A stretch of 64,000 nucleotides of DNA from a virus. Lineage: Duplodnaviria; Heunggongvirae; Uroviricota; Caudoviricetes. The stretch lies in the IMG/VR virus record IMGVR_UViG_651053023_000001, positions 32,001 through 96,000 of that record; one strand, written 5' to 3'. A program made the position numbers. Of this stretch, positions 28,201 to 34,200 are shown piece after piece; positions within the stretch are counted from its first letter, which is position 1, and every line of letters starts with the position of its first letter.

Positions 28201-31200
28201 AATTGGGATCTGTATGGACCTAATTATTGGATCTACCCAGTGGATAATGTGGATAAGTGAAAAACCGGCCAACATAGCCGGTTGGAAGGAAGGGTATTAT
28301 TCTACGCTTTCGATAAGAAGACCATGTTCATAACATTTAAGCTCATCGCCTTCGTACAGGAATTGGTATCCAATACCACCATTTTCATGGACATTAGGGA
28401 ATAACTCATAACTCACTGAAGAGCAAATCACACCAATGCAACGCTCAACGCCTTCTCGTTCTTCAGTGCTGAAAAAATCCTCTTCGGTAAGAACATGAGT
28501 ACATTGCTCATCAGCATAGGTCGGAAATACATGCTCGATGCAATCCGGGTGTTTTAAACCAAGCTGATCGGCAAGCTCGAAAGCATGACGGTATTGTTCA
28601 GATCCTGGCTTGCCAACAGTGATGTGCTCAATTTTGTAGATTGAAGTCGCTTTGTTGATAGTTTGCTTTACTGTTACTTTATCAGACATAAAAATCCCTT
28701 TTAGTTACCGCTGATAGCGCGGTTGTAATCATTAACGTTGCGATTCTTCCTGTTAATCCCCATCAGCATCGTTTCTGTATCGAGGATATACGCTGGCAGA
28801 TCATCAAAATATTCACTGCTAAACTCTGGCATCCTGCACATAAATGCACTTTTTGGGGCAGGGTGGTTAACCTTTGTCGGCGTCGGCGTTAAATTCGCTG
28901 ATCGACTCCCGGAGCAACCGCTGAGTGTCAGCAGGAATACGCTGGCGAACATTACCCGCCGCAACAAGTTGTTTCTGAACTTCAGCTTTTCGTTCCATTT
29001 GCCTGTCAGCATACTTGGCTTGTTCTGATTCATTTTTCACTTCCTGGCTGTGAAAATGTTGCTCTGCTTTGTTCATCGTCTCAATGGTCTGGTTAAGATC
29101 CATTATTGACTTATCACGTTCCTTAACAGCCTGATCAAGACTGCCAATTTTCTCCATGGCTTGCTTTAGCTGATGACGTTCCCACGCAAACCCAGCACCA
29201 ACAAGTGCGCAAATCAGAACAAGAACACCAGTAGCAGCAAGTTTCTCCTTCAAAGACAAAGCTGTTTTTAACGTAGAAAAGAATGACATGTCTTCCTCCT
29301 GAAGAAAAATTATCAATGAAGTCCTTTGTTACCGTGCCGCTTTGTTTAATTCATCAAGAACAGAATCAGGAACCAAAGCGGCGACTGCGCTGGCTGTGCT
29401 GGCCTTATTTGCTGATGCTTCCGCAAGCGCGGTACCGATAGCATGGTTATAAGCAGTTATGGCTACGTTGGCGCTTTCATTCGCTCGTTCATACTGCTGT
29501 TGTAACGCAGTTGTGAGTGCTGTTGTCTGGTTGAAAACAACCCCAAACTGTTCAGTTGCTACTTTCAGAGATTCAATTTGCTCTTCTGTTAGTGCTGGTG
29601 GGGGAGTGGCAGTGCCGCCGCCTGAACCAGAGCCTGACGAGCTTCCTGAGCCAGTGTTAAGGGTCTGGTTAATCTCCCCCATAGCAGCGACTAAACTTGA
29701 TCGATAGGAATTTAAATCCCCAAAAGACTAAAAAAGCACCACAAAACGGATGTTTCTTCAACACCCCTTGTGCACCATATGAGCGGAAACGACTATTAAA
29801 CAGGATGACACTGATTGATACAGGGTATGAATGGCGGTTTTTTGCTCCGTTTCCGGTAAAATGGACGCAACTTCCCCTCTGCGGCTCTCAGCCGCACACC
29901 TGCTGTCGTGCCAAGTCGCTCATGCATCAGGACCAGCTCTGCCAGTCGGTAACCCCGCTTCAGCCCCGTAAAACGCATCTGACTTCCGCACAGAATGCAC
30001 TTCAGCGGGTCAACCTTCAGTAACCTCTGATACATCCCTCTCCACCTGATTTGCATCGCCGTTTTTCTCACCGTCTCCGTTATGACGTACACAACTTCTT
30101 CCAGTAACCGGCGCTTCACCGGACTCAGGAAACCGTAGTACCTCACCATACGGAACCCCTTATCTGCTACATGCCAGGAGAACCTTTCCATGAACTCATC
30201 TCCACTCATCAACAGGTATTCTTCCCGTTTTGTACGGTGACTGTTGTAACGCAGACCGATTTCATCCTGACCGGCATAATGCTCCAGCCGACTCATCGGC
30301 ACCGGTGGCTTTTTCAGGTAAGAGCCGAAGTACACCGCCACATGTGTGGCGTTATCCATCACCCTGGATATGTTGACATTCCAGCCGCGGCGGTAATGCG
30401 TGTCCAGGAAGCAATTCCAGTCCCGTTTGCTGTTTCCTTCCACTGCCAGTTCATCCGGTATCACCAGCTCCGGGTATTTCCGGGACAGTAGCCGCGTTAT
30501 CCGGTAACGCCACATGCTCATCACCTTACGGGCGTAAAAATGAAGATTTTTCCAGGTGTGGCCCGACGTCACACCACCGGCAGTTGTCGATAAATGGATA
30601 TGCGGATGCCACTGCTGGTCACGCCCCCATGTGTGGATCACCGTGAATATCCCCGGCTCCACATCTGTCTGATGGCAGATTTCCAGTATCACATCCGCTG
30701 CAATGCGGCTCATCTCTGCCAGTAACCACCGGTTGTGGAACACCAGGGACCAGTACTGGCAGGGAAGTGTGAACACAATATGCTGCCACGGGCAGTCGGG
30801 GACCAGGCTCAGCAGATACTGTATCCACTGTGCGCCAGCCTTCACCCCGCAGTGCGGACAGGAGCGGCTTTTACACCGGAAGCAGACCTTTTTGGTGTGG
30901 CAACAGTCCGGTGACGAACAGCACCATTGCGTGTAGCCCATCAGCGTGGTCCCGCATGCCATGATTTTTGTCACTGACTCAGTCACCACCGGACGCACTG
31001 AACCTTCCGGCTGTTTCTCCAGCCAGTTAAGCCAGCGGTTACCCTGCTGAAAAATGTCGGCAAAACGGGGAAGCATCAGAAGGCGGGGGGACTCCGTCCG
31101 GCCAGTGAACCGTGCCACACTCCGGGCAGTACATGCCGCCGGCGCTGATACCGGCAAGAATGGTCGCAAACTCCCGCTCCGTGCAGCGGGCTATTTCAGG

Positions 31201-34200
31201 ATACCCTTCGTCATCGACACGAACAAACCAGAAGACCAGCTTTTTGTTTCCGGCATCCACAAAGAAGGGAATATTCAGGTCTGCGCAGCACTCAACGGCA
31301 TCGTCAAAATTATCAAAGCGCAGAGCTTCTGCGTCTTCTTCGTCAAAGAAGTCATCGTCGTGAAGCTTCACGACATAGCGGGGAAGTTTGCTTCTTTGAG
31401 GGGCAGGTTTTCGTTTACGGGGTTTAGCTGAACGGGACATATAACTACCTGAAAGACAATGATATTGTCTGTTTTTATAACGGTAATTTCAGGCCATGAC
31501 AAGCCGCAGCCGCCAGGCTGCCTACTCGATGTATTAAGCGCGTTTACAGCGTCCTCAAGCGATTTAGTAATAGTCACATCACCAATGGCAATAGAGATCG
31601 GCAGTTCTGATACTTCTCGCTCATTAGCACGGCAGTAAACATCCCAACCAATATCGAGTTGAAGCAGCATTGACAGATCTGCATAACCAGCCAACAGGTC
31701 CGCGTGCTTAGTTGCCAGTTCTCCAATGTTCGTTAAGCCGGTTGTGGTTGTTCTGATCGTTGAAACATAGCTGGTAATAGTGTCGGGATAGACAATTGTA
31801 TCCAGAATTAATCCGGTCAATTCTTCTGCAAGCAGTTTTGCTGTGTTAGCACTGTTTCGTGCCGATGTTATGGCACCAGGTGTTTTCATCCCACCGGCGG
31901 CGGCCAATTTTTTATATGCGGATAACTGGTAGTCTTTTTCCAGCATGATATCTCCTAACTTACCTGAACCAGGCCGTCTCCGGACGCTACGGTAGATCCG
32001 CATGAAACAGGGTCACCAACGCATACGATCCCTTTACCATTGACGGTAAACCATGCCCTGGTTGATATAGCTTGCCCACCGTGCGTACTGTTTCCATCGG
32101 TATGCTGTGCATATTGCTTACCATCAACTAACACTTCGACTCCGTTGACTTTAAGTAGTGGTTCACTCTCTACAGGAGGCCTGGATGGGAATCCTCCGTG
32201 CCCCGAACAAATGCTGTCTTTTGTTGCAATACTTGCCACGTCATCACCAATTATTTGCTCTGATTTTCGTTATTTTAACTCAGGTTGTTTGTGGTCTACA
32301 TGGAGTTCAACTATTGCAAAATTGCTCTAATAAATATTGTTTTTTATGTCGTATTTTCGGTACCATTCAGCCATCGCCCTTCAATGGGCATTTGTTTGGA
32401 GTCGTCAGATGCAGATGGAGCTAATAAGCCGCAAGGAGTTCGATAGCCGTGTAACCAGCGGTGAACTCGACAACTTGCAGGCTATCAAGGTGAAAGAAGG
32501 CTTTTGCCTCATTGGGAATCAGAGCGGAACAAATCGCGTTTTTATGCTTCGCCGTACGGATTTGAAGCCATTTGTCTGGAAGAACGAAATTGGTCCCAGC
32601 TCATACGCTCAAACGAGGGGGTGCCACAACCTGGCCTTTTTCTACAAAGACGAGCTTTCTGTGGTTGATATTCAAGGGTTACAACATGTTTAAGCACTGG
32701 AAAAACATTACTATTTATAAACTTTCTCGTGAGGCGGATCTGACCGACTTAGAAGATAAAAAGAAAATGATCCTTTTCACGCCATGCGGTAGTCAGGATA
32801 TGGCCAAGTTCGGTTTTGTATCTCCATTTGGTGATAATTCCGAAGTTATCGCTATGCATGGAAATGGTTTTATCCTTGTTGAAGCAAAGCGCGAAACAAA
32901 AATTCTTCCCCCGCCGGTTATCCAGCGAGCTATTCAAGAAAAAATTGAAAAACTTGAGCAAGAACAAGCGCGTAAACTGAAGAAAACAGAGAAGGACTCC
33001 CTGAAAGACGAAGTTCTGCATTCTCTTCTGCCACGGGCTTTTTCAAAGTTTTCTGTTATCCAGGCGATCTACGACGGTTCAACTAAACGTATCTATATCA
33101 ATGCCAGCGCGCGGCAGGCAGAGGATATGCTCGCGCTTATGCGTAAGTCTCTGGGTTCTCTTCCTGTTGTTCCCCTGAGTGTTGAAAATCCCATTGAATT
33201 AACGCTGACCGACTGGGTACGTGATGGTAGTGCTCCACAGGGATTTCAAATGGGGGATGCGGCAGAACTTAAGGCAGTGCTTGAGGATGGCGGTATTGCC
33301 CGAGTGAAAAAGCAGGATTTGGGAAGCGATGAAATTTCCACACACCTGGAAGCTGGCAAGCTCGTTACTAAGTTGGCACTCGACTGGCAGAACCGCATTA
33401 AATTTACACTGGACCATAACTTCAGCCTTACCAGCGTCAAATTTGCGGATGAATTGCTTGAGCAGAACTCTGATATTGATAGTGAAGATGTTGCGCAGCG
33501 ACTGGATGCAGATTTCTTCCTGTTGACCAGTGAAATTTCGTGCCTGGTTGATGCTCTGGTAAATGCCCTTGGTGGAGAGGCTAAGCAGTGAAAGAGCTGT
33601 GCTATGGATCTGTTTGCAGTGGAATTGAAGCCGCGAGTATTGCCTGGGAACCGTTGGGTATGCGTCCGGCGTGGTTTGCTGAAATCGAGCCTTTTCCATC
33701 TGCCGTTCTTGCGCACCGCTGGCCCCATGTCGCCAACCTTGGCGACATGACAAAACTTGCCAAAAAAGTCCTGGCTGGGGAAATCGAATCCCCTGATGTG
33801 CTCGTCGGGGGTACGCCTTGTCAGGCATTCAGTATCGCGGGCTTACGTGGTGGGCTTGATGATGAACGCGGCGCGCTAACTTTGAAGTATGTGGAGCTTG
33901 CAAATGCAATTGACGACAAACGGTCTGAGTCCTTCCTCAAACCGACAGTTATCGTCTGGGAAAATGTCCCAGGAGTCCTGTCATCGGCAGATAACGCCTT
34001 CGGATGTTTCCTTGCCGGATTGGCTGGAGAAGATGCGCCATTTGAACCAGGTGATCGACCTGAATCAGGAAAAAGTAACGCGTTCTGGCGGTGGGATGGC
34101 AAAACCGGTTGCCATGCTCCAAAGTGGCCGCAGTGTGGTTGTATTTATGGACCGCAGCGAAAGGTGGCCTGGAGAATCCTTGATGCCCAATACTTCGGAG

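Follow-up and report, generated by a model that had tools for sequence, protein, structure and literature searches.

The DNA analysed here, hereafter the window, is a stretch of 64,000 nucleotides (nt) from the IMG/VR virus record IMGVR_UViG_651053023_000001 (Caudoviricetes; positions 32,001 to 96,000 of the record). It belongs to a P1-like phage-plasmid, and most of it is collinear with the IncY plasmid pMB2910_2 (NZ_CP103741), at 96–99% identity. The annotated gene order of P1 in the part of interest is repA - oriR - upfA - mlp - ppfA - upfB - upfC on one strand, followed by uhr - hrdC - dmt on the other, and the surroundings of the insertion described below match P1, P7 and other punaviruses at 97–98%. 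Positions 29700–31528 are almost certainly a copy of the insertion sequence (IS) IS91 that transposed into upfB of this phage-plasmid. The features of the locus are as follows.

29700–31528, minus strand: complete IS91 copy of 1829 bp, a mosaic isoform (not in P1; ends compared across seven copies; removal restores the empty site exactly)
29696–29699, plus strand: CTTG target tetranucleotide adjoining the oriIS end, part of upfB and outside the element (empty site and seven-copy comparison)
29700–29785, minus strand: oriIS end with two small subterminal palindromes, GGAATTTAAATCC (29707–29719) and GGGTGTTGAAGAAACATCC (29748–29766) (fold scan and terminator-like scan)
31440–31528, minus strand: terIS end, comprising a GC-rich hairpin GCAGCC-GCCA-GGCTGC (31506–31521), then CTA, then the cleavage tetranucleotide CTCG (31525–31528) (fold scan and seven-copy comparison)
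29796–31076, minus strand: tnpA, HUH/Y2 transposase of 426 amino acids (aa) (Pfam and NCBIfam matches)
31039–31440, minus strand: orf121 in a 133-aa stop-loss form that overlaps the tnpA start (alignments)
31529–31946, minus strand: 5′ part of upfB, codons 1–139 plus 1 nt (comparison with P1 upfB and the 262-aa pMB2910_2 gene)
29329–29699, minus strand: 3′ part of upfB, codons 141–262, its own start lost (rejoined halves compared with UpfB of pMB2910_2)
31955–32239, minus strand: upfC, a PAAR-like (T4 gp5.4-like) spike-tip gene, intact and outside the element (identity to P1 UpfC, weak PAAR matches)

Limits of the element and the interruption of upfB

The alignment of P1 to the window runs up to 29700 and resumes from 31524, with nothing between. 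Three P1-like plasmids that are closer to the window than P1 (pMB2910_2, or L002, together with L003 and L004) were read base by base at the site. Their empty site is AAACTTG|ATGTATT (at greater length, ...GCGACTAAACTTGATGTATTAAGCG...), and the occupied site in the window is AAACTTG[IS]ATGTATT (...GCGACTAAACTTG [ATCGATAGG ... GCTGCCTACTCG] ATGTATTAAGCG...). Excising 29700–31528 therefore leaves the target without a base gained or lost, a single A being assignable to either end, and the occupied site shows no target-site duplication against the empty site of these three plasmids. We considered a 6-bp duplication, since the P1 BLAST alignments overlap by six bases (ACTCGA) at the junctions, and rejected it. 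In the closer relatives the site is ACTTGATG; the six shared bases thus arise by chance, from a resemblance of the IS terminus (...CTACTCG) to the variant sequence that P1 happens to have there.

A preliminary description of this DNA, made from the sequence alone, named no IS91-like element as known from canonical P1 and proposed a comparison with P1-like genomes that lack the insertion. Both points held up: P1 and P7 lack the element at this site, and 569 plasmids in PLSDB, all P1-like, span a 602-nt reconstructed empty site unbroken (best match 99.8%). This comparison bears on the idea that P1-like genomes natively carry the transposase-like gene as a conserved component, which arises only from its position among small genes of unknown function and for which we found no support. 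Against it stand the empty sites just described, a GC fraction of 0.52–0.60 across the element versus about 0.43–0.47 on either side, and the outcome of an IS91 search across 50,697 phage records, which gave no full copy and only two partial matches. That the gene is native is, on this evidence, virtually inconceivable.

The ends were compared across seven IS91 copies, namely that of the window and six others (L007–L012) from F-type plasmids, one Escherichia coli chromosome, and two other P1-like plasmids. All six other copies start with ATCGATAGG; in the first 30 bases, five (L008–L012) show no difference from the window and L007 shows two. At the opposite end, the final 30 bases of all six agree with the window and close with GCTGCCTACTCG. 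Every one of the seven copies is preceded by CTTG or GTTC and terminated by CTCG, in flanks that are otherwise unrelated. The terIS hairpin lies seven bases from the end of the element, and its fold z-score is -3.9 on one strand and -3.2 on the other. Published work on IS91 gives the same signals, with a 5′-CTTG/GTTC target adjoining oriIS, terIS cleavage at 5′-CTCG and no duplication of the target, and finds the last 82 bp, together with CTTG, sufficient for function (PMC13181058). The IS91-family insertion proposed in the preliminary description is thus borne out by IS91 ends, with CTTG at oriIS and CTCG at terIS. A promoter scan of the region found two promoter-like sites, no excess over the 3.2 expected in shuffled sequence, and so has nothing to say on outward transcription.

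The interrupted gene matches P1 upfB, the baseplate tripod gene, in sequence and in position, between ppfA and upfC. The element entered after nucleotide 418, in codon 140 of the 262-aa gene model, and when the two halves are rejoined, 259 of 262 residues are identical to the intact UpfB of pMB2910_2. Two open reading frames (ORFs) now occupy the site. The first (31368–31946, 192 aa) joins UpfB residues 1–139 to 53 residues encoded by the element; the second (29329–29682, 117 aa) begins at an internal ATG of the 3′ part and encodes the severed C-terminus. The preliminary description had seen that the 192-aa ORF runs from phage DNA into the element and that the gene might be altered, which is correct: upfB is in fact split in two. 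It placed the element between genes, beside a PAAR-like gene pair. The element instead lies inside upfB, and only the nearby upfC is PAAR-like, its supposed partner being the truncated upfB. Similarly, ORF 29329–29682, which had been counted among the origin-proximal small genes, is the UpfB C-terminal remnant. The neighbouring 94-aa UpfC shares 93 of 94 residues with P1 UpfC; its match to the Pfam PAAR_motif model is borderline (26.4 bits, cutoff 27), and its PAAR matches are weak overall.

Coding content and mosaic composition

The minus-strand tnpA ORF (29796–31169) encodes 457 aa when read from a TTG and 426 aa from the ATG at 31076. It matches the Pfam families Y2_Tnp (PF04986, 133.5 bits) and Zn_Tnp_IS91 (PF14319, 67.5 bits) and the NCBIfam equivalog transpos_IS91 (NF033538, 287.4 bits against a cutoff of 125). 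Its translation shows a Cys cluster (CCSSPDCCHTKKVCFRCKSRSCPHC), an HPHIH motif (WHPHIHLS) and the tyrosine pair of YFGSY (VYFGSYLKK), and WHPHIHLS and VYFGSYLKK are taken to be the catalytic motifs of the family. The HUH/Y2 transposase with Cys cluster and HPHIH recognised in the preliminary description is thereby confirmed, and the small upstream ORF that it saw overlapping this gene (31039–31440) is the orf121 of IS91.

Over its first 387 residues, TnpA is identical to the L008 and L011 transposases at 385–386 positions. An extra T at 29914, private to the window among the seven copies, replaces the last seven of the usual 395 residues by 38 others, for a total of 426 aa, and leaves the region covered by the family model (residues 5–365) unaffected. 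An exact-sequence look-up of the 426-aa product in a large protein collection returned no record. We considered whether this protein could be the historical ‘ORF426’ of IS91. The equation is disfavoured, as the 47 kDa expected for tagged TnpA (PMC13181058) and the 395-aa RefSeq gene models favour 395 aa as the norm.

Residues 1–120 of Orf121 are identical to those of the 121-aa product of L007. Ahead of the orf121 stop, in a run that directly follows 31084, one nucleotide is deleted, which exchanges the final residue and extends the product by 12 residues. The stop is thereby shifted to 37 nt past the tnpA ATG, and the one-base stop/start overlap (TGATG) that 80.6% of IS91 isoforms keep (PMC13181058) is absent. 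The 133-aa form is also present in L010 and is listed among natural IS91 isoforms (PMC13181058), so the lost overlap does not exclude membership in IS91. Within its family, orf121 is unique to IS91; its product lowers transposition and improves terIS recognition, so that one-ended transposition is less frequent (PMC13181058).

By its sequence, the element is almost certainly IS91 proper and not just a member of the family. Over its full length it is 97.3–98.2% identical to copies listed in RefSeq as ‘IS91-like element IS91 family transposase’. Matching sequences are widespread, with about 1,800 plasmid records and 1,565 of 5,426 complete E. coli genomes; the E. coli records are mostly plasmid-borne and often come from pig enterotoxigenic E. 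coli (ETEC) isolates. The window copy, at 1829 bp, is close to the prototype in length (about 1830 bp). Like the prototype from E. coli alpha-hemolysin plasmids (X17114; isoforms in PMC13181058), it carries orf121 followed by tnpA, encodes an HUH/Y2 transposase with a zinc-binding N-terminus, has terminal palindromes, and uses a CTTG target at oriIS and CTCG at terIS without target duplication. It differs from the prototype in being a mosaic of two isoforms, in its 133-aa Orf121 without TGATG coupling, and in the exchange of the last seven TnpA residues for 38 others.

The mosaic has two parts. From terIS through orf121 (31528 to about 31080), the window copy is identical to the L007 isoform, that of plasmid pIDPH8234-2, at 466 of 469 positions. 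From tnpA to oriIS it is instead identical at 1354–1357 of 1361 positions to the isoform of L008, L010, L011 and L012, and the two parent isoforms are ∼10% apart. We infer that the window copy arose by recombination between two IS91 isoforms, which accounts for the ceiling of 98.2% on its identity to any single database copy. One history would begin with an L007-type IS91 in upfB; a second isoform would then have inserted at the same CTTG, giving a head-to-tail tandem, and recombination between the tandem copies would have left the mosaic. We regard this history as probable, with modest confidence. Alternatively, a ready-made mosaic may have inserted independently at a hot spot. Head-to-tail terIS|oriIS junctions are frequent in plasmids.

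This composition also bears on whether the element is another member of the family (IS1294, IS801 or an ISCR) or a one-ended product with extra DNA, in place of plain IS91. The transposase family identified by Pfam and NCBIfam is common to all of these elements, which also share the mode of movement, including one-ended transposition of adjacent DNA, and the 98.2% ceiling on identity to a single copy could be read in the same direction. However, each part of the mosaic is 99–100% identical to its parent type, which accounts for the sub-99% figure. IS1294, IS801 and the ISCRs lack orf121, whereas the window element has it, and both of its ends are those of IS91, identical to IS91-labelled copies over the terminal ∼30 bases compared. 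ISCRs are not known to have a recognisable terIS; here, a canonical terIS is present and in use, and phage sequence resumes right after its CTCG. The inserted DNA is exactly one element long. We consider another family member or a one-ended product very unlikely. The published targets are GTTC for IS801 and IS1294 and GTCC for IS1294b (PMC13181058).

Some points weigh against the identification as an IS91 copy in upfB and its consequences. The name ‘IS91 itself’ is based on the product names in RefSeq and on how closely the element agrees with copies that bear them. The window copy carries two private indels, and its exact TnpA product has no database record. The history of a tandem followed by recombination is only one of several possible for the mosaic, and the consequence for the phage, discussed below, is extrapolated from P1 laboratory data. 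We found no evidence that contradicts the IS91 identification: this is a known element that behaves canonically, in kind and in behaviour.

The same junctions elsewhere and other differences from relatives

Both junctions recur in other P1-like DNA. A Logan contig of SRR4179081 (contig 267) encodes the identical 192-aa fusion ORF and has the same terIS-upfB junction; its alignment to the window extends from 31277, inside IS91, to 33821 and contains 31 mismatches, none of them in the IS part, and its backbone is 1.2% diverged. Plasmid pIDPH8234-2 (NZ_CP077454, E. coli O111:H8; IS91 at 3151–4978) shares with the window the exact base and the orientation of the CTTG-oriIS junction in upfB. Its terIS-orf121 part is the one that agrees with the window at 466 of 469 positions, whereas its tnpA-oriIS part belongs to another isoform (1227/1361 against the window). 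The terIS end of this copy abuts hrdC right after another CTTG (window 33280–33283), and the 5′ part of upfB, upfC, uhr and the 5′ end of hrdC are deleted. The deletion appears to follow the pattern expected if an IS91 copy in upfB had recombined with a second, directly repeated one in hrdC. A search of PLSDB and complete E. coli genomes with the left junction returned no record covering at least 80% of the query; pIDPH8234-2, at 71%, was the only record to span the junction. Two contigs retrieved through the 117-aa remnant ORF (L014 and L016) were examined as oriIS junctions and rejected, being uninterrupted upfB genes cut by contig ends and hence further empty sites.

These recurrences also bear on the integrity of the window. 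IS91 is multicopy in many E. coli plasmids, occurring at up to 22 places per genome, and is a typical source of misjoins, so a repeat could have been misplaced in the phage-plasmid contig during assembly. Yet both junctions are canonical and jointly restore upfB with no base lost or gained, the terIS junction is found independently in SRR4179081, and the oriIS junction lies at the same base in pIDPH8234-2. Moreover, a draft contig of GCA_012696605.1 that is 99.98% identical to the window ends at the junction, at 29698. An assembly artefact is extremely unlikely, and we retain the reading of a genuine IS91 insertion.

The same junctions are thus found with different isoforms and on backbones more than 1% diverged (the window, SRR4179081 and pIDPH8234-2), a pattern that would need either repeated hits on one tetranucleotide or the spread of an allele by recombination. 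On this basis, the CTTG of upfB could be a preferred landing site for IS91; alternatively, upfB::IS91 could be a circulating natural tripod knock-out that persists in several P1-like plasmid lineages because loss of UpfB is neutral or advantageous. We hold such a reading to be rather unlikely. If it were true, the advantage of losing UpfB could lie, for example, in a change of adsorption or of host range, or in a move towards life as a plasmid.

Other insertions have been recorded in related genomes. Plasmid pE94-3 (NZ_CP119743, the source of L008) likewise carries IS91 in a non-essential part of a P1-like genome (3510–5338, adjoining GTTC), but in the adjacent gene ppfA and not in upfB, and in the opposite orientation relative to the phage genes. 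Similarly, P1 mod749::IS5 (AF234172) has an IS in a non-essential part, in a gene other than upfB. The resident IS1 of P1 is a further IS in a non-essential part of a P1-type genome, outside upfB. In pEC416_1 (NZ_AP027403, the source of L010; 306–2885), a full IS91 has entered another IS91 at a GTTC inside it; a 756-bp oriIS-proximal piece of the interrupted copy is left and, after it, the whole element. The two partial matches among phage records are a 298-bp segment of Escherichia phage phi456 (OR339795.1, 48431–48727), annotated as a hypothetical protein, which resembles the 3′ portion of IS91 tnpA (window 29838–30135) at 90.6% identity, and a 149-bp match in ECO111 5-P.

The SRR4179081 contig differs from the window in a further gene. 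At 1072–4359 of contig 267, dmt encodes 1095 aa versus 672 aa in the window and matches Hint_2 (weakly) and LAGLIDADG_3 (faintly), which suggests that this Dmt contains an intein.

Elsewhere in the window, ∼4.9 kb (50752–55627) is not found in the otherwise collinear pMB2910_2. Here, two direct copies of an IS3-family element, which we take to be IS629/IS1203-like, flank 2.26 kb; each encodes an orfA (108/136 aa) and an orfB of 296 aa, with terminal inverted repeats TGAACCGCCCCGG.... Between them lie an IS66-type fragment (52972–53391) and a minus-strand ORF of 324 aa with rve/Mu-transposase-C similarity (53317–54291), and the whole looks like a composite IS cluster. Three other stretches are not collinear with pMB2910_2 (13246–14623, 59245–61348 and 62023–63205) and look like ordinary variable regions of P1-like plasmids. 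The first contains a DUF5384 ORF and a weakly TraT-like ORF (13275–14339), at a position that presumably corresponds to the sim region of P1; an Ead/Ea22-like ORF lies at 59242–59997.

Mobility and consequences for the phage-plasmid

The element is bounded as the mechanism of IS91 predicts, and it adds 1829 bp and nothing else. According to that mechanism, TnpA would nick at oriIS next to CTTG/GTTC, and a single strand would be displaced up to CTCG at terIS to give a single-stranded circle. The bottom-strand circle would be the substrate for insertion, entering on the 3′ side of a new CTTG/GTTC and leaving the target unduplicated, while Orf121 would damp transposition and make termination at terIS accurate (PMC13181058). 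In the window, displacement would begin at 29700 and head towards 31528, and a failure to terminate at terIS would carry along the DNA on the right: the upfB 5′ part, upfC, uhr and hrdC. With both ends intact, the window copy is expected to be mobilisable, in trans at least. Its ability to move autonomously is uncertain, because the orf121-tnpA stop/start coupling is lost and the extreme C-terminus of TnpA is altered. The preliminary description also pointed out that IS91 can mobilise adjacent DNA, which is correct in principle; the window itself bears no sign of such mobilisation.

For the phage, the affected part is the tail tip. A 2026 cryo-EM study describes UpfB as three trimeric ‘tripods’ anchored to the spike tip, which consists of a monomeric, T4 gp5.4-like UpfC on a gp5 trimer (PMC12810830). 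A genome-wide CRISPRi screen found upfB, upfC, ppfA and upfA to be non-essential for P1 plaque formation (PMC10695390). By analogy with P1, we infer that the phage-plasmid would lack a functional UpfB tail-tip tripod; since upfB is non-essential in P1, virions without the tripod are probably still viable in the laboratory and plaques still formed. In P1, promoters for ppfA are predicted within the 3′ part of upfB; coordinate mapping puts them left of the insertion point, so they should be retained.

The immediate consequence is for annotation: ORFs 31368–31946 and 29329–29682 are halves of one broken gene, and 29700–31528 is a mobile element. Beyond annotation, the importance of the finding is small. 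Nonetheless, upfB::IS91 is a natural knock-out of a recently placed P1 tail-tip protein and could serve to study the function of the tripod. IS91 is also an element that carries adjacent DNA by one-ended transposition and gives rise to deletions between its copies, as pIDPH8234-2 appears to show. It is therefore plausible that IS91 provides a route for the remodelling or cargo loading of P1-like phage-plasmids.

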